A stretch of DNA of 23,439 nucleotides, from the IMG/VR virus record IMGVR_UViG_3300045988_013110, positions 1-23,439 of that record. One strand, given 5' to 3'. This document shows positions 137-14,316 of this stretch, one piece after another. How positions within the stretch are numbered: the stretch's first letter is position 1; each line of letters starts with the position of its first letter. The DNA is from a virus. Lineage: Duplodnaviria; Heunggongvirae; Uroviricota; Caudoviricetes. Position numbers and translations under genes: made by a program. Under the pieces are notes generated by a model. That model worked only from the letters and a program-made list of their open reading frames with translations, was not told the origin of the DNA and did no database searches.

Positions 137-174
137 TGACGGTATTACCTTAAAGGTATACTCTCATACCGTCA
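137..174. promoter_or_regulatory. inverted-repeat cluster upstream of int containing one operator-like site (TTACC-TTAAA-GGTAT, 145-159)
   Basis: TGACGGTAT (137-145) and ATACCGTCA (166-174) form a 9-bp inverted repeat; between them lies a one-mismatch copy of the TTACC-N5-GGTAA motif. Confidence 0.35.
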
Positions 175-201: not shown

Positions 202-1452
202 GTGCTTACCGATACAAAATTAAAAAACCTCAAGCCGCAGGACAAACTGTACAAGGTCTCCGATCGTGACGGGCTGTATGTAGCTGTGCTTACGTCAGGC
301 ACGGTCTCGTTTCGCTATGACTACCGTATCAACGGTCGCCGCGAAACACTGGTAATCGGGCAGTATGGGCGTGACGGTATCAGCCTGGCAGAAGCGCGGG
401 AAGAACTGATTGCTGCAAAGAAGCTGCTTAAAGCAGGCCAGTCACCGGCTGCGGCTAAACGTGACGGTATCAAAAAGATTCGTGGTGCCGAGACGTTTGC
501 GGTACATACCGACAGTTATATGAAACACGTTATCCTGGCTGACAGTACCCGCGCAATGAAGCAGGCGGTGATCGACCGTGACATACTTCCGGTTCTTGGC
601 AACAAAATGATGGCTGAAATTACCACATCGATGGTTCGTGATTTGTGTGACCGGATTGTCGAACGCGGTGGTCGGGCAACAGCAGTACAGGCCAGGGAGA
701 TCATCAGCAGCGTATACCGTCACGCCAATGACCGTGGTCATGGTTTGTTTAATCCTGCGGCTGACATTAAACCTTCGTCTATCGCCATATTTAAACCACG
801 AGAGCGAACACTGACACCAGAAGAAATTGGCCTGTTCTTCCGCACGCTGGATGCCATTGGTGCTATGGGCACTATGAAAATGGCTTTAAAGCTGGTGCTT
901 ATCACTATGGTTCGTAAAGGCGAATTCACCAATGCAACGTGGGATGAAATAGATTTTAAAAAATGGACATGGACAATTCCTTCAGAGCGCATGAAGGGAA
1001 GCCGGGCGCACGTTATTTACCTGCCTAAACAGGCACAGGATATATTGGTTGGGTTGCAGATGTGCGCTGGTGGAAGTGAATATCTGGTTCCTGGTCGTTA
1101 CAATTTCCGGAAGCCATTATCTAATGCCGCGCTGAACTCTCTGATCGACAGAACGGTGAAAATAATAAATGAAGATGGTGAGCATATTCAGGGCTTCACC
1201 GTACACGATATGCGCCGTACAGCCAGTACGTTGTTGCATGAGGCTGGTTATCCTTCAGACTGGATTGAAAAGGCTCTGGCACATGAGCAGAAAGGTGTGC
1301 GCGCCGTATATAACAAAGCGGAATACGCCAGACAGCGCGCCTACATGTTGCAGCAGTGGGCCGATATGATTGATTCCTGGATTAACGGGGAGCATACGGA
1401 TCTGATTCCGTTCTCCCCGTCGAAGTTTGAGAAGTGGATGGCGGGGGAATAA
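202..1452 (+). CDS. int: tyrosine recombinase / phage integrase (P4-type)
   Basis: 416-aa ORF with GTG start. N-terminal arm-binding-type region (LTDTKLKNLKP...YRINGRRETLVIG) and C-terminal catalytic region (HDMRRTASTLLHEAG ... VRAVYNKAEY) are typical of P4-family integrases. Confidence 0.9.
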   Translation: MLTDTKLKNLKPQDKLYKVSDRDGLYVAVLTSGTVSFRYDYRINGRRETLVIGQYGRDGISLAEAREELIAAKKLLKAGQSPAAAKRDGIKKIRGAETFAVHTDSYMKHVILADSTRAMKQAVIDRDILPVLGNKMMAEITTSMVRDLCDRIVERGGRATAVQAREIISSVYRHANDRGHGLFNPAADIKPSSIAIFKPRERTLTPEEIGLFFRTLDAIGAMGTMKMALKLVLITMVRKGEFTNATWDEIDFKKWTWTIPSERMKGSRAHVIYLPKQAQDILVGLQMCAGGSEYLVPGRYNFRKPLSNAALNSLIDRTVKIINEDGEHIQGFTVHDMRRTASTLLHEAGYPSDWIEKALAHEQKGVRAVYNKAEYARQRAYMLQQWADMIDSWINGEHTDLIPFSPSKFEKWMAGE

Positions 1453-2996: not shown

Positions 2997-3914
2997 TTAC
3001 ATAGATGTTTCGTTTAATTCTTCCCGACGAACGCTGTAAACGTCGGTGGCTTTTGCCAGCAGTTCGTCATCATCTGAAAGTTTTTGTGCAATGTATTTGT
3101 AAGCCTTATCCAGTTCGGAGACAGTGCTGTAATTCATCGCTGCGCTGGTAAAGGCCATCAGCACTTCTTCTGGATCACGGCTATCCGCTTTACGCGTTTG
3201 CTCATCATGCTTTTTCACTGGTTTAGCGTTGATCAGACTGTTCATGCTGGATGCTGTGCCGTGCTTTGCCTGACTTCTTGGAGTTACGTCACGTTCAATA
3301 ATGTCAGGTGAGTCGATATATTTACCTTCCATTTCCTCAGCTGTGGCTTGTTGACCAATCTCCGGCCATGCTTTACGTAATGCCTGTGCCTCTGCGCATT
3401 TTGCCAACTGCGCATAAGGGCGCTTTTTCCACATGGCATTTGGTGCCGATGTGTCACGCCCCCCAGTTGCATAGTTCTCAATCCAGTATTCTTTGGCGCT
3501 AAACTCTACGATTTCCCCGCTTGCCATTCGCTTGCTGACGGTGTACTTACACCACTGAGGGAAGGTAACCTCCACGCCTGAAAGCGTTTGTGTTACATCT
3601 GGACCGAACTCAGGTTCATTAGCGCCTGCGTAATCGCCGGAACGGTAGGCCTGAATGCGATAAAGTCCAATGCCAGGCATGACCACGTCGCGCCATTCAT
3701 TCTTTCCACTCTTCGAGTCTTTAACACTCATTGGTACCAGGTGTACCGGCTTAAGAAGAGGATCGAGTTGACGCGCCCGGCAGTAATCGACTGCCATCAT
3801 TACCGATTCATCTTTTGCCCCAGGGTAAATACTGTTTTTCAGAGCGCTCCATGTAACTTCATCGATTCCCCGAATAGCCAACACATCATTGGTGATTGCA
3901 ATTTCGTTGCTCAT
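2997..3914 (-). CDS. RecT/Red-beta family single-strand annealing protein
   Basis: Segments HLVPMSVKDSKSGKNEW and AMWKKRPYAQLAKCAEAQALRKAWPE resemble the RecT family by recollection. ATG 3914 overlaps the exonuclease stop (ATGA). Confidence 0.8.
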   Translation of the reverse strand: MSNEIAITNDVLAIRGIDEVTWSALKNSIYPGAKDESVMMAVDYCRARQLDPLLKPVHLVPMSVKDSKSGKNEWRDVVMPGIGLYRIQAYRSGDYAGANEPEFGPDVTQTLSGVEVTFPQWCKYTVSKRMASGEIVEFSAKEYWIENYATGGRDTSAPNAMWKKRPYAQLAKCAEAQALRKAWPEIGQQATAEEMEGKYIDSPDIIERDVTPRSQAKHGTASSMNSLINAKPVKKHDEQTRKADSRDPEEVLMAFTSAAMNYSTVSELDKAYKYIAQKLSDDDELLAKATDVYSVRREELNETSM

Positions 3915-4732
3915 ACGTACATATCCTGTTTGCGTGCCCACTCAGGGCGTTTAATAATTTCCACGCCGCCCCATTCATCGCTGATGCGGCATTCGTGATA
4001 GGTATTCAGATCCCGGCGGAACAGAGCGTGCCCGGCATCGACATCCGGCGCATCCAGCCCGAACACGCGTACCGGATACCGACCACAATCAATGCTTTCG
4101 CTCACGGCAAGAAAGAAAAAACCATGCGGCTGACCAGTAACCCTCATTGCGCCTTCGCGGTACATTGCGTCCTGCACGTGGTAGCGGAATTCCTCGATGT
4201 GACGTGCAAAACGGTCCATATCTGCAACCTTTTTCACGTCGACGATCACGTTGTGCTCGTTCAGCCATTTGTCTGGACGAATTCGGCACAACTCACCCGT
4301 CTCTTCATCGTTCCAGTACATTGATGCTTCGCAGTAACCAGGTGCTTCCAGCATCCAGCGTGCCGCCGGGTGAGCCATTGCGCTATCACGCATCAGCTCC
4401 AGTTTCCGCCACTGCTCGGCATCAAGTACCGTAATCCCCATATCCGCTACATCACGAAGAAATGCTTCTTCGTCAGCTTTACCTTGTTTCGTCCGACGAT
4501 CGAACTTCGGTGAAACAATGAAGCGTTTGTCGAATTCTCCAGGCTCCAGAAGCAGACAGTGCAATGCGGTTCCCATATCCAGTGCAGACTTTTTCTCTTC
4601 GTCTTCTGGTGCTGCCTGAACCCATTTAAGAAGCGCCGGATTCTTGGCAACCATGTCCAGTTGCGACTTACTCACGCCGTCACCGGCGTGGTAGTCTTCG
4701 TTGCTGATGTCGAAATAAATTCCCGGTTTCAT
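3911..4732 (-). CDS. RecE-type recombination exonuclease (PD-(D/E)XK fold)
   Basis: N-terminal GIYFDISNEDYHAGDGVSKSQL and downstream acidic/Lys residues resemble the RecE C-terminal nuclease domain. Sits directly upstream of the annealase, as in RecET modules. Confidence 0.75.
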   Translation of the reverse strand: MKPGIYFDISNEDYHAGDGVSKSQLDMVAKNPALLKWVQAAPEDEEKKSALDMGTALHCLLLEPGEFDKRFIVSPKFDRRTKQGKADEEAFLRDVADMGITVLDAEQWRKLELMRDSAMAHPAARWMLEAPGYCEASMYWNDEETGELCRIRPDKWLNEHNVIVDVKKVADMDRFARHIEEFRYHVQDAMYREGAMRVTGQPHGFFFLAVSESIDCGRYPVRVFGLDAPDVDAGHALFRRDLNTYHECRISDEWGGVEIIKRPEWARKQDMYV

Positions 4733-5028
4733 GCCGCGTCCCTCTGTCCATCAAGCTGATCCGCCAGATCCCAGCGCGCTATAATTGCCATTGCCTCGCG
4801 CCGGTAGGCATCCATCAGTTCTTCGAACTCAGGGCTGTCTTTAGCAGCCTCCAGCACTTCCTGACGAACGCCTTTGCCTGTTACAACGTCGAAAGTTGAG
4901 GACAGTTGATGAAGTCGGATGCTCTCAATCAGTTCAACTTGTCGGTCATATAGCTGTTCTGACAGGCGGTAGTCCTTGTCGAATGCCAGCATGATTTTTT
5001 GAAGATTTTTCTGCTGATTAACGTTCAT
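4729..5028 (-). CDS. hypothetical protein, possibly a Gam-like host-nuclease inhibitor
   Basis: 99 aa from ATG 5028 with GGAGG Shine-Dalgarno. C-terminal DSPEFEELMDAYRREAMAIIA loosely resembles the lambda Gam C-terminus by memory. Stop overlaps the exonuclease start (ATGA). Confidence 0.4.
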   Translation of the reverse strand: MNVNQQKNLQKIMLAFDKDYRLSEQLYDRQVELIESIRLHQLSSTFDVVTGKGVRQEVLEAAKDSPEFEELMDAYRREAMAIIARWDLADQLDGQRDAA

Positions 5029-5030
5029 TA

Positions 5031-5183
5031 TCAGCCCTCCCATATCTCGTTATCGTTGGCTACATCGCGAGCTTCTTTGCTGACGAAAGCCCACTTAATG
5101 CCTTCCTGTAAGGTGCGGAACTTCCAGCTCATGAATCCGCATGCAGTAACGCAGTACCAACCGTTGATGATTTTCCACTGCAT
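5031..5183 (-). CDS. small hypothetical protein (50 aa), first gene of the leftward operon
   Basis: Translated by hand as MQWKIINGWYCVTACGFMSWKFRTLQEGIKWAFVSKEARDVANDNEIWEG. GAGGT Shine-Dalgarno 8 nt upstream. Below the length cutoff of the ORF track. Confidence 0.35.
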   Translation of the reverse strand: MQWKIINGWYCVTACGFMSWKFRTLQEGIKWAFVSKEARDVANDNEIWEG

Positions 5184-5189
5184 AACTTG

Positions 5190-5279
5190 TTACCTCGGTC
5201 TGTTACCGTTGGGGTAATAATTATGCTTATTTGGTTTGGTGTCAATAGATATGAGTTAAAAAAATTACCCGTAAGGTAA
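5190..5279. promoter_or_regulatory. OL-like operator pair plus half-site upstream of the leftward operon
   Basis: Perfect TTACC-N5-GGTAA at 5203-5217 and 5265-5279 (centres 62 bp apart), plus a TTACC half-site at 5190-5194. Confidence 0.55.
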
Positions 5280-5291
5280 TCTATCTGGCAA

Positions 5292-5315
5292 TAAAAAAGC
5301 CGCCATGAGGCGGCT
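5292..5315 (-). terminator. rho-independent terminator downstream of the repressor gene
   Basis: Stem GCCGCC / GGCGGC with loop ATGA; on the minus strand it is followed by TTTTTT. Confidence 0.6.
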
Positions 5316-5336: not shown

Positions 5337-5921
5337 TTATTGTTTGCTTTTTTCGTTCTGGTTGATGACAAATTCAATGTAACTTTCGATCTTTGCTTTC
5401 TCGGTTTCGGGTAACAATGCGTAGCGCGAGCGATCATAGTTGATGGTCGCAGGGTCGTGCGGGTGAATCAGTAATTCATAGCCGTGACGCCCGAATGCGG
5501 ATGCAACATTCTCCAGGGTGGAAATGGAAACGCTGACCTCATTGTTTAACAGGCGACTGATTGTCACCTGGGCGACGCCGGATGCGCGGTGAAGTTTTCC
5601 CTGCGTTGAAAGGTCGCGGCTTTCGCTCATCCAGCGTTCCAGGTTGTGAGCCGCCAGCTGACCAATGTCGCTTGGGCCGACAGGCTGAAAACCTTCCTGA
5701 GAAAGCGAGCGATCGATATCAAGCCAGTTACGGGGTTTATTGGCGGCAGCTTCAATTTTTCGCGCAACCTGGTCGCCGATAACCTTCTTGCCAAGAGCCC
5801 AGCGGTTTACCAGATTTGCCTGAGTTCCAAGTTTTTCTGCCATCCGCGTCTGAACACCATTGAATTCACGGTCGATCAAGTCGTTGAGATTTTGCCTGCG
5901 GACGTCCTGGATACTTTTCAT
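5337..5921 (-). CDS. prophage repressor (CI-like) with two HTH regions and no obvious S24 peptidase domain
   Basis: Two XRE-type HTH stretches (MAEKLGTQANLVNRWALGKK and ASGVAQVTISRLLNNEVSVSISTLENVA). No GDSM-type Ser/Lys autocleavage motif seen. Divergent from a Cro-like gene with operators in between. Confidence 0.7.
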   Translation of the reverse strand: MKSIQDVRRQNLNDLIDREFNGVQTRMAEKLGTQANLVNRWALGKKVIGDQVARKIEAAANKPRNWLDIDRSLSQEGFQPVGPSDIGQLAAHNLERWMSESRDLSTQGKLHRASGVAQVTISRLLNNEVSVSISTLENVASAFGRHGYELLIHPHDPATINYDRSRYALLPETEKAKIESYIEFVINQNEKSKQ

Positions 5922-5976: not shown

Positions 5977-6039
5977 TTACCCAACAGGTAAATGCACCCC
6001 ATAGGTAACTATCCTTGATTTTTGTTACCTTATGGGTGA
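5977..6039. promoter_or_regulatory. OR-like tripartite operator region between the repressor and Cro-like gene
   Basis: TTACC-CAACA-GGTAA (5977-5991), GCACC-CCATA-GGTAA (5994-6008) and TTACC-TTATG-GGTGA (6025-6039) lie in the 154-bp divergent intergenic region. Confidence 0.6.
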
Positions 6040-6075
6040 ATATTTATTATCTGAAATAAATATCAGGCAATAGCT

Positions 6076-6306
6076 ATGAGCGATAACGGACATTTCGATT
6101 TCAAAAAGCACTGGCTTGCACTTACTCCGGATGAGCGTGAAGCCTTCGCACAGGAAGCCGGAACGACGAGTCACTATATCCAGACTCACTTAACAGGTAA
6201 GCGCAAAATGCCAGGTAAGGTATTGATGAATGGGCTTTTTAAAGCCTGTAAAACAAGACAATGGCTGCGCTCAAAAGCAGAACTGGCATACTTCTTCTAC
6301 TCATGA
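6076..6306 (+). CDS. Cro-like HTH protein
   Basis: 76-aa ORF divergent from the repressor; HTH-like stretch TSHYIQTHLTGKRKMPGK; followed by a terminator. Confidence 0.55.
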   Translation: MSDNGHFDFKKHWLALTPDEREAFAQEAGTTSHYIQTHLTGKRKMPGKVLMNGLFKACKTRQWLRSKAELAYFFYS

Positions 6307-6327: not shown

Positions 6328-6351
6328 AGACCGCCATCCGGCGGTCTTTTC
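6328..6351 (+). terminator. rho-independent terminator after the Cro-like gene
   Basis: Stem AGACCGCC / GGCGGTCT with loop ATCC, followed by a short T-run (TTTTC). Confidence 0.5.
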
Positions 6352-6362
6352 ATATCTATTCG

Positions 6363-6377
6363 CACCTAAAAGGTAAC
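6363..6377. promoter_or_regulatory. operator-like site (GCACC-TAAAA-GGTAA) ahead of the replication operon
   Basis: Same left-half variant (GCACC) as the OR site at 5994-6008; lies just downstream of the terminator at 6328-6351. Confidence 0.4.
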
Positions 6378-6457: not shown

Positions 6458-6658
6458 ATGGAAATCATTACACGTATTGATGCCGCAAAGCGCGGACTTA
6501 AACGCTACTACACCGGAAAACCATGTAAGCATGGACATGACAGTGAACGCTGGGTTTACAACGGACACTGTGTTGAGTGCACCATGGAATCAAACCGTCG
6601 CATCAGGGCAGAGATTAAGCAGATCATGATTAATTCCTCCCCACAACACTCAAGCTGA
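6458..6658 (+). CDS. hypothetical Cys/His-containing small protein
   Basis: Start taken at MEIITRID (the upstream ATG at 6407 has no Shine-Dalgarno). Contains CKHGHD...CVEC, a possible zinc-binding motif. Confidence 0.4.
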   Translation: MEIITRIDAAKRGLKRYYTGKPCKHGHDSERWVYNGHCVECTMESNRRIRAEIKQIMINSSPQHSS

Positions 6659-6673
6659 TAGCGGAGATTAATC

Positions 6674-7507
6674 ATGAGCAGACATGCAACAGATTGGGCC
6701 TGGGAGACAGATCCAGGTAGCTCATCATTAAAGCTCATACTGCTCTCGATGGCTGACAGAGCCGATGAATATAACCTCTGCTACCCCAGCATAGAACGCC
6801 TCGTTAAAGACACTTGCCTGAATAAAAAAACCGTGCAGGCCGGGCTTATATCGCTCATGAAAATGGGGCTTATTTCAGATACCGGAGAGAGAAAGGGAGC
6901 GACAAAAAGAGTGCGGGTTTTCTCTCTTAATATAACCAAAAACGGGAACATTAAAGGCAACCTAGAAGGGTGTAATGAACCCGAAAACGGTAATGTTCCC
7001 GAAAACGGGAATATACCCAAAAACGGGATGTTGAATGATCCCAAAAACGGGATGTTGAATGATCCCAAAAACGGGATCCAGAACCAGTCATATAACCAGT
7101 CATTTAACCAAGAGAGGGAGAGCAGGACAAAAACCGGGGATTCTGTGCCTCATGACCCCGGCGCAAACAACGCCGTGATGAATAACTTTGTTCCTCCTGG
7201 TGGGCCAGGGCAATTAGGCAAATTTGTCATGCATGAACAATGGCAGCCATCAGATGACTTTCTTCGGAAAAGCTCATTGCAGGGAATCTACCTGGACAGT
7301 CTGCCAACGGCACAGGAACTTGCAGAGTTCAGAATTTACTGGATGGCTGAGGGTAAGGCATACCATCAGGCACAGTGGGAGCAGAAGCTGGCAAGGCGCA
7401 TCCAGTTCTGTAGACAGAAATCAGGTGAAGTCAGAAAGAGCCTTGACTGGCATAACACTGACTGGATAGATGAGGTGTGGGATGAAATCAACTCCAGAAC
7501 TTCTTAA
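6674..7507 (+). CDS. replication initiation protein (HTH N-terminus, DnaT-like C-terminus) with embedded iterons
   Basis: N-terminus (WAWETDPGSSSLKLILLSMADRADEYNLCYPSIERLVKDTC) resembles HTH domains of phage replication initiators; the C-terminal region looks DnaT-like. An iteron array lies inside the gene, as ori does in lambda O. Confidence 0.7.
   Translation: MSRHATDWAWETDPGSSSLKLILLSMADRADEYNLCYPSIERLVKDTCLNKKTVQAGLISLMKMGLISDTGERKGATKRVRVFSLNITKNGNIKGNLEGCNEPENGNVPENGNIPKNGMLNDPKNGMLNDPKNGIQNQSYNQSFNQERESRTKTGDSVPHDPGANNAVMNNFVPPGGPGQLGKFVMHEQWQPSDDFLRKSSLQGIYLDSLPTAQELAEFRIYWMAEGKAYHQAQWEQKLARRIQFCRQKSGEVRKSLDWHNTDWIDEVWDEINSRTS
6935..7104. repeat. iteron array, candidate origin of replication
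   Basis: Six copies of core CC(C/A)(G/A)AAAACGG(G/T) starting near 6936, 6980, 6998, 7016, 7040 and 7064 (spacing 18, 18, 24, 24 bp), then AACCAGTCAT twice (7082-7103). Confidence 0.6.
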
Positions 7508-8264
7508 TGAGTACGATCGCTTTCGTGGTGGGCATGACCACTCGACGGCGGTTGCTTCTGCTGACGATGAAAGGGCAAAGAAGGAGCAGGTTGCAAGAAT
7601 TTTCAACGAAATGTTTGTCCAGTTACAGGCTGCATTTCCAGGCAGCATCGCTGCTATCAGCGAGCAAGGAAAGCTAAACGAATTTCGAAAACAATGGATG
7701 CTTGCGTTTCTGGAGAATGGGATCACAACAATGGAACAGGTTAACGCTGGTATGCGCCACGCCCGCGCCAGTGAATCTCCGTTCTGGCCGTCGCCAGGGC
7801 AATTTATCAAGTGGTGCAAAGACAGCAAGATGGTTCTTGGCGTCACCATTGACGATGTGATGGCGGAGTTTCACCGGTACAGCAAGGAAAAAAGTTTATA
7901 TCCTGGTGGTCCCGAAAGATTCCCGTGGCGACATCCGGTTATGTACTGGGTCGTATGTGATACCCGCCGTGCAATGTATCAGCGCCAGCTTAGCGAGATT
8001 GAGGTTGAGAAACACGCGCGCAGGCTGCTCGATGATTGGGCGAAAAAGGTAGCTTCCGGACAGCAGATACCCGATCCGGTGATCAGCATACAGGCAAAGC
8101 GAGAGCCCATGAGTACACCTCCGGACACAGGGAGAGACGTTTACCATCCACCAGGGCGAAGTTTCGGGTGCATGCCTAACGCCGCCACCCTTGGGGGAAT
8201 AACACCGGCGCAGTGGCTGATGGAGGAATACAGGCGGGGAAAGGCGGCAGGATTTATCAAGTAA
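7482..8264 (+). CDS. replication protein P-like helicase loader
   Basis: KQWMLAFLENGITTMEQVNAGMRHARASESPFWPSPGQFIKWC matches, by recollection, the conserved core of lambda P. GAGG Shine-Dalgarno before ATG 7482; overlaps the initiator gene 3-prime end. Confidence 0.8.
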   Translation: MKSTPELLNEYDRFRGGHDHSTAVASADDERAKKEQVARIFNEMFVQLQAAFPGSIAAISEQGKLNEFRKQWMLAFLENGITTMEQVNAGMRHARASESPFWPSPGQFIKWCKDSKMVLGVTIDDVMAEFHRYSKEKSLYPGGPERFPWRHPVMYWVVCDTRRAMYQRQLSEIEVEKHARRLLDDWAKKVASGQQIPDPVISIQAKREPMSTPPDTGRDVYHPPGRSFGCMPNAATLGGITPAQWLMEEYRRGKAAGFIK

Positions 8265-8301
8265 TACCAGCGCGATAGCGCATTTTTTTACGTCTTGATA
8301 A

Positions 8302-8378
8302 TTACCTGTTGGGTAATAAAATATTCTAAAATCTATTGATTTCGTGTCTTATGTGGTTTTTAATTACCTCAGAGGTAA
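8302..8378. promoter_or_regulatory. operator pair upstream of the middle-gene operon
   Basis: Perfect TTACC-N5-GGTAA at 8302-8316 and 8364-8378, centres 62 bp apart. The proximal site overlaps the Shine-Dalgarno (AGAGG) of the gene starting at 8382. Confidence 0.5.
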
Positions 8379-8381
8379 ATC

Positions 8382-8726
8382 ATGAGAAAACAGATACAGG
8401 CTCTTGGTCGACTCAAAACAGGCCAGATGAACAAAACAGAATCTGCGTATTGCCAGCACCTTGAGCAGCGTAAACGTGCAGGGGAAATCGCTTGGTATCG
8501 ATTCGAGGGTATCAAGCTGCGGTTAGCTGACAACACGTTCTATACGCCCGATTTTGCTGTGATGCTCGCTACCGGCGAGATGGAACTGCACGAAGTGAAA
8601 GGTTTCTGGACCGACGACGCCAGAGTGAAAACAAAAGTCGCCGCAGATCAGTATCCGTTCCGAATAATCGGGGTAACGGTTAAACCAAAGAAAGCAGGTG
8701 GCGGCTGGAACATCGAAGAGTTCTGA
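8382..8726 (+). CDS. hypothetical phage protein (DUF1064-like by recollection)
   Basis: 114-aa ORF; pattern YTPDFAV...HEVKGFWTDDARVKTKVAADQYP. Confidence 0.5.
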   Translation: MRKQIQALGRLKTGQMNKTESAYCQHLEQRKRAGEIAWYRFEGIKLRLADNTFYTPDFAVMLATGEMELHEVKGFWTDDARVKTKVAADQYPFRIIGVTVKPKKAGGGWNIEEF

Positions 8727-10559: not shown

Positions 10560-10645
10560 TGCCGCCAGTTAAAGTTGTGATTATCACTTTGGTGATGATA
10601 GTGATTGCGAGAATCATGTCTGGTGAAGTTTGGTGGATATGGTAA
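10556..10645 (+). CDS. candidate hydrophobic micropeptide (29 aa)
   Basis: ATG overlaps the upstream stop (ATGA); GGA-rich Shine-Dalgarno. Product MMPPVKVVIITLVMIVIARIMSGEVWWIW looks like a single transmembrane helix. Below the ORF-track cutoff. Confidence 0.25.
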   Translation: MMPPVKVVIITLVMIVIARIMSGEVWWIW

Positions 10646-10983
10646 TGGCTAAGGCAGCAGCAGAGCGCAAAGCCGCTCAGAGAGCCAGACAAGCTGCATC
10701 TGGTGTGCGTAAGCTGGAGATTGTGCTTGATGCTCAGGAAATTGAAATGCTGGAGCGTAACTGTGCCACACGTCGCCCCGGGCGTGCGCCTTACGAATTT
10801 GGTGAGTATATAGCGTTACTGATCCGCCAGGATGATGCGCGCGTGCACGGGCGTATAAAATCGATCAGCAGAAAACGTTGCGGTAAGTGCGGCGAGAGAG
10901 TTCCTGTGAATTCATGCCCGTGTAATGGTGACTCGCAATGCTGGGTGACTAAAGGCTGGCATGAAACGAAATTAATATTGTGA
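10630..10983 (+). CDS. hypothetical protein with C-terminal Cys cluster
   Basis: C-terminus RCGKCGERVPVNSCPCNGDSQC; last gene before the terminator that precedes the packaging operon. The start could instead be ATG 10645. Confidence 0.45.
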   Translation: MVDMVMAKAAAERKAAQRARQAASGVRKLEIVLDAQEIEMLERNCATRRPGRAPYEFGEYIALLIRQDDARVHGRIKSISRKRCGKCGERVPVNSCPCNGDSQCWVTKGWHETKLIL

Positions 10984-11032
10984 CATGTCACGAGTGGGTT
11001 ATGCATGATGAATTTGATGGGTTTTGAATACT

Positions 11033-11058
11033 GCCGCCAACTATGGCGGCTTTATTTT
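11033..11058 (+). terminator. rho-independent terminator upstream of the terminase genes
   Basis: Stem GCCGCC / GGCGGC with loop AACTAT, followed by TTTATTTT. Confidence 0.65.
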
Positions 11059-11066
11059 GCATGGTA

Positions 11067-11102
11067 CTATTACCACAACGGTAACTATTACCACGGTGGT
11101 TA
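11067..11102. promoter_or_regulatory. operator-like sites and direct repeat at the packaging-operon entry
   Basis: Perfect TTACC-ACAAC-GGTAA (11070-11084) and imperfect TTACC-ACGGT-GGTTA (11088-11102), within a 10-bp direct repeat CTATTACCAC (11067-11076 and 11085-11094), immediately before the TerS start codon. Confidence 0.45.
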
Positions 11103-11701
11103 TGATGCCTGCTGAACCTAAAACCTATAAACGCAAATCAACGCAATTTAAGCCACTAACAGCAATGCAGGAGGCTTATTGCCAGTCATACATCAAAACG
11201 CCTGAAAACCAGACTCAGGCTGCGATTAATGCAGGATTCTCCCCAAATACAGCGGCAGTTAAAGCCAGTGTCATGATGCGCGATGAACGCATTCAGAAAC
11301 GGATTGCCGAGTTGATGGAGGAGCGCAACAAACGAATGCGCGTCAGTGCTGATTACGTTCTCATGCGCCTGGTGGAGATCGACCAGATGGACGTGATTGA
11401 CATTCTCAACGACGATATGAGCATCAAGCCGGTCTCGGAATGGCCTAAGGTCTGGCGGCAGTACCTGACAGGTTTCGAACTGGCCGACATGTTCGAAGGC
11501 CGTGGAGACGAGAAAGAGCTGGTTGGCATCCTCAAAAAAATTAAATGGCCTGACAAGGTGAAGAACCTCGAACTGATTGGTAAGCACGTCGACGTCAACG
11601 CATTCAAAGAACGCCTGGATGTTAATGTGAATGTGACAATTGCTGATCGCATAGCGGCAGCCAGGAAGAGACTGAAAGAACGTCAGGATGGCAATCAGTG
11701 A
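11102..11701 (+). CDS. terminase small subunit
   Basis: Start set at ATG 11102 because the track start at 11024 is a TTG lying upstream of the terminator. HTH-like segment LTAMQEAYCQSYIKTPENQTQAAINAGFSPNTAAVKAS is typical of small terminase subunits. Confidence 0.8.
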   Translation: MMPAEPKTYKRKSTQFKPLTAMQEAYCQSYIKTPENQTQAAINAGFSPNTAAVKASVMMRDERIQKRIAELMEERNKRMRVSADYVLMRLVEIDQMDVIDILNDDMSIKPVSEWPKVWRQYLTGFELADMFEGRGDEKELVGILKKIKWPDKVKNLELIGKHVDVNAFKERLDVNVNVTIADRIAAARKRLKERQDGNQ

Positions 11702-14301: not shown

Positions 14302-14316
14302 TTACCTGAAAGGTAA
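14302..14316. promoter_or_regulatory. operator-like site upstream of the virion operon
   Basis: Perfect TTACC-TGAAA-GGTAA; a GGTAA half-site at 14374-14378 sits at the same 62-bp centre offset. Confidence 0.45.

Follow-up and report, generated by a model that had tools for sequence, protein, structure and literature searches.

A conserved pair of putative repressor operators brackets a candidate promoter behind the replication genes of an epsilon15-type prophage

The intergenic region and its phage

The window, i.e., the whole stretch of 23,439 nucleotides that was analyzed, matches the Uetakevirus podophages vB_EcoP_PAS61, phiv142-3, ZX5, and phiV10 with 95–97% identity; many E. coli prophages also match. 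Judged by its sequence, it is the prophage of a temperate podophage of the epsilon15/phiV10 type (Uetakevirus), and a lambda-like siphophage is excluded. Its start falls within the att core reported for ZX5 (tgggaatgatt, 1–11), which the paper on that phage, vB_EcoP_ZX5, places at the 3' end of guaA. Operators were not mapped in that paper, whose transcript measurements concern the lysis genes only.

The genes of the window and the regulatory elements discussed below are listed in Table 1. The region of interest (8265–8381) separates the replication genes from a gene whose product matches both DUF1064 and phrog_190 (“Holliday junction resolvase”; 6e-43). Further downstream, the gp49-like gene is the last gene on the plus strand ahead of the next terminator-like hairpin; its product may have a role in late gene expression, and it probably shares a transcript with the gene at 8382. 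An Rfam search of the window recovered only a tRNA-Arg gene and no RNA element at 8302–8378. Within the DnaT-like gene, positions 6928–7105 contain six direct repeats of ~18–24 nt (core CCCnAAAACGGGA) and a 12-nt tandem duplication, which resemble origin iterons within an initiator gene, as in lambda O.

Table 1. Genes and putative regulatory elements of the window, and positions of the homologous operator pair in reference genomes (in the coordinates of the respective genome)
Feature	Position	Strand	Remarks
One-mismatch operator TTACCTTAAAGGTAT	145–159	.	Between att core (1–11) and integrase gene
Integrase	202–1452	+	
Leftward recombination operon	2997–5183	−	
PL module	5203–5279	−	Proximal operator 5203–5217; −10 AATTAT 5217–5222; −35 TTGACA 5240–5245; distal operator 5265–5279
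Repressor (Rep)	5337–5921	−	193 aa
OR triple	5977–6039	.	Between rep and cro-like gene; 5977 perfect, 5994 two mismatches, 6025 one mismatch
Cro-like small HTH protein	6076–6306	+	phrog_35 “transcriptional repressor”, 5.6e-13
DnaT-like replication protein	6674–7507	+	
Lambda-P-like replication protein	7470–8264	+	Stop at 8264
Terminator-like element GCGC-GATA-GCGC + T7	8270–8289	+	Putatively closes the replication operon; RNA fold −8.4 kcal/mol, z −2.3
Distal operator TTACCTGTTGGGTAA	8302–8316	.	Perfect; 17-bp form ATTACC-N5-GGTAAT at 8301–8317
A/T-rich spacer TAAAATATTCTAAAATCTA	8317–8335	+	19 bp ending in ATCTA; AAAATAT block and ATCTA ahead of the −35 element conserved
−35 element TTGATT of the bracketed promoter (PM)	8336–8341	+	CTATTGA near-invariant across lineages
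−10 element TTTAAT of PM	8359–8364	+	After 17-bp spacer; last T is first T of proximal operator
Proximal operator TTACCTCAGAGGTAA	8364–8378	.	Perfect; covers predicted start site (~8371) and GAGG at 8372–8375
DUF1064/Holliday-junction-resolvase-type protein	8382–8726	+	First gene of the putatively controlled operon; Pfam DUF1064, 3.4e-07
Eae/Ea22/DUF551-type genes	8788 to about 10560	+	
gp49-like transcriptional regulator (epsilon15 gp49)	10630–10983	+	phrog_536, 3e-54; annotations of phiV10p55 and epsilon15 gp49
Tandem operators	11070–11102	.	Before small terminase start 11102/11105; 11070 perfect, 11088 one mismatch; 18 bp apart
Terminase, then head genes	from 11105	+	
Single operator	14302–14316	.	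Perfect; adjoins leftward promoter-like TAGACA-18-AATTAT (14345–14316)
Operator pair of phiV10	35070 / 35132		
Operator pair of epsilon15	35907 / 35969		
Operator pair of Tyrion	37265 / 37327		
Operator pair of BUCT554	11580 / 11642		
Operator pair of SPC32H	35972 / 36034		

The terminator-like element, whose homolog in phiV10 is annotated as a putative rho-independent terminator, lies 12 bp upstream of the distal operator. Because its stem comprises only 4 bp, termination may be partial, and read-through from PR may also feed the operon. The preliminary description of this DNA had reported two perfect TTACC-N5-GGTAA sites at 8302–8378, with the proximal one overlapping a Shine-Dalgarno sequence. 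A pattern search recovers both sites at a distance of 62 bp, start to start as well as center to center, and the right half of the proximal site (GAGGTAA) indeed contains the sole Shine-Dalgarno-like sequence before the ATG at 8382, from which the operator is separated by 3 nt (ATC). With transcription starting at the predicted position, the leader would comprise only ~11 nt, with its Shine-Dalgarno sequence inside the operator.

The −35 and −10 elements of the candidate promoter PM lie between the two sites. A consensus promoter scan did not call TTGATT-17-TTTAAT because its −10 element lacks the usual A at position 2; together with a −35 element that matches the consensus at four of six positions, this makes PM weak by consensus. 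It may require an activator, or the main start may lie elsewhere. The A/T-rich spacer upstream of the −35 element (about −37 to −55) is located where an UP-element or a bend could be expected. An IHF-like sequence (AATCAATAGATTT, one mismatch) is present at 8329–8341, but an IHF-assisted bend between the operators was rejected because such matches occur at chance level (24 in the window vs. 21.4 expected).

The same geometry recurs at PL, as had also been pointed out before; both operators are perfect and lie 62 bp apart. Read along the minus strand, the distal operator (5279–5265) is followed by 19 bp ending in ATCTA, TTGACA, 17 bp, AATTAT, and the proximal operator, which begins on the last T of the −10 element just as it does at 8302–8378, and the two modules have the block ATCTATTGA in common. 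This agreement in layout, base for base, goes beyond equal spacing and indicates that the modules are two copies of one design.

The operator motif and its putative repressor

Perfect copies of the motif are strongly enriched in the window, with 7 in 23.4 kb vs. 0.01 expected from 100 dinucleotide-preserving shuffles, none of which reached 7; when up to two mismatches are allowed, 28 sites are found vs. 6.1 expected. In the window, six or more separate regions contain perfect or near-perfect operators, including several that the preliminary description had left out (the OR triple and the sites at 11070/11088, 14302, and 145). In the OR triple, the site at 6025 lies inside the spacer of a PR-like promoter (TTGTTA-17-TATTAT, 6022–6050). 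The spacings at OR and ahead of the terminase genes (17–18 and 31/48 bp) differ from 62 bp, which makes the latter one of several arrangements of these sites. Altogether, operators of the same word precede the integrase gene, PL, PR, PM, the terminase genes, and the head-gene region of the window, and in complete relatives also the tail-fiber/antirepressor and lysis genes.

The surroundings of these additional sites show several features of their own. Downstream of the cro-like gene (6328–6376), a terminator hairpin (6328–6347) is followed by a degenerate operator with two mismatches, GCACCTAAAAGGTAA, whose counterparts in phiV10 (33112) and Tyrion (35365) have one mismatch; this is another junction of terminator and operator, located before the gene at 6458–6658. 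Ahead of the terminase genes (10980–11105), a promoter-like GTGACA-18-CATGAT (10980–11009) and a strong terminator hairpin (11033–11050) precede the tandem operators, an arrangement that resembles a late promoter-terminator unit downstream of the gp49-like regulator gene. The true start of the small terminase gene is likely the ATG at 11102/11105; the Pfam match starts at residue 18, and the starts annotated for terS in PAS61 and phiV10 appear to take in both hairpin and operators. The tandem sites occur in the same arrangement in epsilon15 (12/30), phiV10 (87/105), and Tyrion (67/85).

On the minus strand downstream of the promoter-like sequence at 14302, ~320 nt without a database match are followed by a tRNA-Arg(TCT) gene (13979–13903); the region further contains two terminator hairpins and an ORF of 115 aa (13606–13259; phrog_3163). 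The location of an operator and a promoter-like sequence ahead of the tRNA gene suggests that the repressor may control the transcript of a phage tRNA. At the left end of the window, the one-mismatch site near the integrase gene has counterparts with the same GGTAT right half in phiV10, epsilon15, Tyrion, and SPC32H, whereas that of BUCT554 has its mismatch in the other half; the site and its counterparts suggest that Rep weakly controls int or the att arm.

The repressor gene of the window encodes a full-length homolog of the Rep protein of phage SPC32H (PDB 5D50; E 1.7e-41), with about 45–50% identity. In a Pfam search, the protein yielded an HTH_3 domain (aa 105–146) and a weak N-terminal HTH but no Peptidase_S24 domain; all families recovered were of the HTH type. 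An N-terminal NLVNRW, presumably the recognition helix, hardly varies among 47 variants of Rep, all of which co-occur with the operator motif. Several observations tie the motif to Rep, namely the OR array between rep and the cro-like gene, the co-occurrence of motif and Rep homologs, the near-invariance of NLVNRW in these variants, and the label “repressor” on seven such sites in the epsilon15 record. Rep is therefore the presumed binder of the operators at 8302–8378; the Cro-like protein may bind them as well. The Rep/Ant switch of Salmonella phage SPC32H is represented by PDB entries 5D50 and 5D4Z (Kim and Ryu 2013; Kim et al. 2016).

The seven protein_bind features in the epsilon15 record (NC_004775) share the motif ATTACC-N5-GGTAAT and are, as far as the record shows, predictions. 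One of them (35906–35922), located between the replication gene and a resolvase gene, is the homolog of the distal site; others match the sites of the window at PL, before the terminase genes, and at 14302 (homolog at 2931–2947). Of the pair, the record marks only the distal member and leaves its partner (35969) as well as the OR sites (33341 and 33358) unmarked. The downstream gene of epsilon15 encodes a RuvC-like resolvase, in contrast to the DUF1064 protein of the window. The pair analyzed here thus combines a palindromic site, a cognate Rep in the same element, and positional homology with an annotated site of epsilon15. SPC32H has the same motif and a 62-bp pair before its DUF1064 gene, and a Rep tetramer, which offers two DNA-binding pairs, would suit operators arranged in pairs.

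According to a secondary source (PMC9638917), Rep of SPC32H binds palindromic DNA as a tetramer, one tetramer being sufficient for repression; each DNA-binding pair is built from domains of different dimers, and the antirepressor disassembles the tetramer. A further secondary source (PMC9986798) places the two pairs of middle domains in the structure about 100 Å apart, describes a tetramerization fold that also occurs in Rco, a DNA-looping regulator of plasmid pLS20, and mentions crystal contacts that suggest octamers formed from tetramers. Induction is by antirepressor (PMC9782041; PMC9638917); the antirepressor gene lies outside the window.

Conservation of the operator pair

A 62-bp pair follows the replication genes in all five reference genomes (Table 1), although the gene downstream of it differs, encoding a DUF1064 protein in phiV10, BUCT554, and SPC32H and a RuvC-like resolvase in epsilon15 and Tyrion. 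All five, including those with diverged repressors, use the operator word TTACC-N5-GGTAA, so that there is no second word to compare. In a scan of viral contigs that allowed two perfect sites to be 47–77 bp apart, a spacing of 62 bp was found 117 times and one of 63 bp 19 times; any other value in this range occurred at most 9 times. When the contigs were oriented by their Rep gene, the pair was present in dozens of them, across Rep lineages with 41–100% identity. Its distance from rep varied between 1574 and 3021 bp and the downstream genes differed, whereas the internal spacing was constant.

The consensus of the stacked modules reads GCGC-N4-GCGC-T7, ~14 bp, operator, AAAATAT, CTATTGA, 17 bp, T(T/A)AAAT, and operator, often with GGTAAATCATG; that of the PL modules runs parallel, with CTATTGACA and AATTAT. 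The hairpin sequence GCGC-N4-GCGC-T7 is kept across Rep lineages, and relatives have TTAAAT or ATAAAT in place of the −10 element of PM. These viral contigs (Rep identity down to 41%) were retrieved by the motif itself, on perfect sites, and a second set of 80 loci was therefore chosen by the DUF1064 protein alone.

In this motif-independent set, both perfect sites are kept in 67 of 69 distinct upstream sequences. Among 78 distinct loci, nucleotide diversity (pi) at the twenty half-site positions is 0.000–0.001, with no diversity at all in the half-sites of the distal operator and zero variation in the GCGC-N4-GCGC-T7 element. The −35 and −10 elements are essentially invariant, with minor-allele fractions of 0.002 and 0.005, respectively. 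By contrast, pi reaches 0.46 in the central pentamer of the distal operator and 0.23 in the 12 bp outside of it (8290–8301). This juxtaposition of invariant pentamers and the most variable bases of the region is the strongest evidence in this analysis for selection on the half-sites.

The variable positions themselves deserve attention. Diversity hot spots (pi 0.19–0.46) among the 78 loci comprise positions 8290–8301, 8307–8311, 8369–8373, 5270–5274, 5280–5292, and 5999–6003, which correspond to the centers and outer flanks of the distal operators and to the centers of two other sites. No other short stretches in about 6 kb of alignable sequence vary as much as the centers and outer flanks of the distal sites. 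Third codon positions have a mean pi of 0.048 (1248 positions), which the distal center exceeds about tenfold; four of its five positions are at or above the 99th percentile. The distal site has 28 different central pentamers among 69 sequences, and variants appear reshuffled among loci. An extreme hypervariability of the operator centers was nevertheless rejected, because a pairwise analysis shows the loci to be less alike than presumed (flank pi 0.044) and leaves a real excess that is smaller than minor-allele counts had suggested. Possible causes of the diversity at centers and flanks are unconstrained drift with recombination, a tuning of affinity via bases that are not contacted, or local hypermutation.

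A model for the repression of PM and its alternatives

Considered together, the features of the locus make it quite probable that 8302–8378 is a repressible promoter cassette under the direct control of Rep. The hairpin and its T-tract would end the rightward replication operon, at least in part, and PM, a sigma-70-type promoter, would restart transcription into the next operon, which probably extends from the DUF1064 gene to that of the gp49-like regulator, immediately ahead of the terminase genes. PM would be flanked by two palindromic Rep operators of 15 bp, the proximal one overlying both start site and ribosome-binding site. The distal operator is located ~62 bp upstream, i.e., roughly six helical turns, which places it on the same face of the DNA. 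In a lysogen, Rep bound to both operators would keep RNA polymerase off PM; at the proximal site, it would block the −10 element and the start site, and at the distal site (about −62), it would stabilize binding via the tetramer and may also cover the UP-like A/T tract. The operon would thereby be shut off directly, independent of the repression of PR, and induction would occur when the phage antirepressor removes Rep from all operators at once.

Since the homologs of Rep are tetramers with two DNA-binding pairs, two operators that are located six turns apart around a promoter would be a natural substrate for the two operator-binding units of a single tetramer. The most likely form of repression, to which we assign about an even chance, is that the two operators are held by one Rep tetramer and the intervening promoter DNA is bent, in the same way as at PL. 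The required bend, roughly 200 degrees over 62 bp, is demanding. Looping had already been suggested in the preliminary description; a loop within the pair seems more likely than one between the pair and OL.

The direct control of a further operon, likewise proposed there for the repressor (or Cro), gains support from the conserved −35 and −10 elements between the operators, the terminator-like element upstream, the PL-like layout, and the invariance of half-sites and spacing in all relatives examined. The lambda frame, however, was wrong: Rep is of the SPC32H type, with two HTH regions and no S24 domain. Because almost all transcription units of this phage group bear the operator motif, speaking of “a third operon” counts too few and makes too much of the surprise. 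Rep appears to control almost every transcription unit directly.

The sites could also serve mainly a Cro-like protein that damps early and middle transcription during lytic growth, with Rep in a secondary role. The gene for a small HTH protein of this kind lies divergent to rep, an arrangement known from lambdoid switches, and in lambda, Cro and CI share operators. The Cro-like protein of the window also aligns weakly with the N-terminal HTH of Rep (27% over 41 aa), but the putative recognition helices differ (SHYIQTH vs. ANLVNRW), the 62-bp pairing suits a multivalent tetramer better than a small Cro, and the annotators of epsilon15 assigned the motif to the repressor. As the principal use of the sites, this is unlikely, although binding by Cro would be compatible with control by Rep. 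Even less probable is a promoter that lies further upstream, TTGATA (8295)-16-TAAAAT (8322), which would have the distal operator in its spacer and the proximal operator as a downstream roadblock, located at about +35 to +50. No sequence of the region matched the consensus better in the promoter scan (10 of 12 positions), and the TAAAAT downstream of the distal operator is conserved; its −35 element, however, falls into the most variable stretch of the region (8290–8301, pi 0.23) and is missing in epsilon15/SPC32H-type sequences (CTAATG/CCAATG) and in Tyrion, whereas TTGATT-17-TTTAAT is essentially invariant.

The pair might also lack a promoter of its own and act as an anchor that strengthens repression at OR or OL by looping over 2–3 kb. 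There are precedents in the OL-OR looping of lambda and the flanking sites of phage 186, and many operators are spread along the genome; moreover, the octamers suggested by crystal contacts (PMC9986798) would provide a means. This is nonetheless very unlikely, given the conserved −35 and −10 elements between the sites, the adjoining start codon, the terminator-like element upstream, and a distance to rep that varies (1574–3021 bp) while the internal 62 bp remain constant. That the palindromes arose by chance or as a side effect of ribosome-binding sequences (GGT/AGG) has next to no probability. Shine-Dalgarno sequences do coincide with two proximal-type sites (8364 and 11088); against this stand the chance expectation of only 0.01 sites, a distal site that is free of any ribosome-binding sequence, and half-sites that are invariant beside highly variable neighbors.

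The Rep-bound cassette favored here resembles OL and OR of lambda in its palindromic operators over early promoters and in the divergent pair of repressor and cro genes with a three-site OR. It differs from lambda in two respects: CI combines an N-terminal HTH with a self-cleaving, LexA-like S24 domain at its C-terminus, which Rep of the window lacks, and the operators, which in lambda are adjacent, in tandem, and restricted to OL and OR, occur in at least six regions, with the present pair 62 bp apart around a promoter. Repressor regulons with dispersed operators are known from C1 of phage P1, gp71 of mycobacteriophage L5 (stoperators), and c of phiC31, where one repressor with sites throughout the genome silences many units directly. 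The sites of P1 and L5 are asymmetric, however, and the stoperators of L5 lie within transcribed regions and depend on orientation, whereas the sites of the window are symmetric and located at promoters or start codons.

A parallel to the geometry is provided by Rco of pLS20 and by the lac O1-O3 and gal OE-OI pairs, where two in-phase sites, a multivalent repressor, and a promoter at or between the sites are combined. The loops of lac and gal are longer (92 and 113 bp); the distance of 62 bp (5.9 turns) likewise corresponds to an integral number of helical turns and is conserved. The operators of Rco are 75 bp apart and the protein shares the tetramerization fold of SPC32H Rep (PMC9986798), but Rco recognizes arrays of direct repeats, whereas the operators of the window are single palindromes. 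The pair appears to work like operator pairs that bracket a promoter and like dispersed regulons such as that of P1 C1, but is itself a member of the operator set of epsilon15-type Rep.

The layout is typical of epsilon15/phiV10-like phages, where it is already partly annotated, and ordinary for the group. In view of the homologous distal site marked in the epsilon15 record and the structures solved for the repressor family, the pair adds to a known kind, and the type of regulation itself is not new. A literature search, whose reach did not extend to the primary papers on SPC32H and epsilon15, yielded no account of these operators. The proximal partner, the strict promoter-bracketing geometry of 62 bp shared with PL, and the diversity pattern may be undescribed.

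In a common prophage family of E. coli and Salmonella, the repressor would probably silence the post-replication operon directly and, by the same motif, nearly every other transcription unit, and would thus act independently of a lambda-style cascade from two operators. This bears on the prediction of gene expression in lysogens and on the question of how antirepressor-driven induction frees the whole genome at once, and is relevant for the engineering of reporter phages of the phiV10/SPC32H type. For the published tetrameric structure of Rep, the strict 62-bp geometry constitutes a concrete prediction from the side of the DNA. A more far-reaching combination of ideas can be put forward only tentatively: the 62–63 bp would represent the docking geometry of one tetramer (a micro-loop); the cassette would be a portable, insulated unit that was duplicated at PL and PM and is kept at a mosaic junction across the genus; and the diversity at distal centers and flanks would reflect either a tuning of affinity under diversifying selection or a local hypermutation of repressor-bound prophage DNA.

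Rep proteins that are 41–100% identical share one operator word and NLVNRW, suggesting that the specificity of immunity may not lie in operator recognition. In this genus, it may instead reside in the C-terminal part of Rep that binds the antirepressor.
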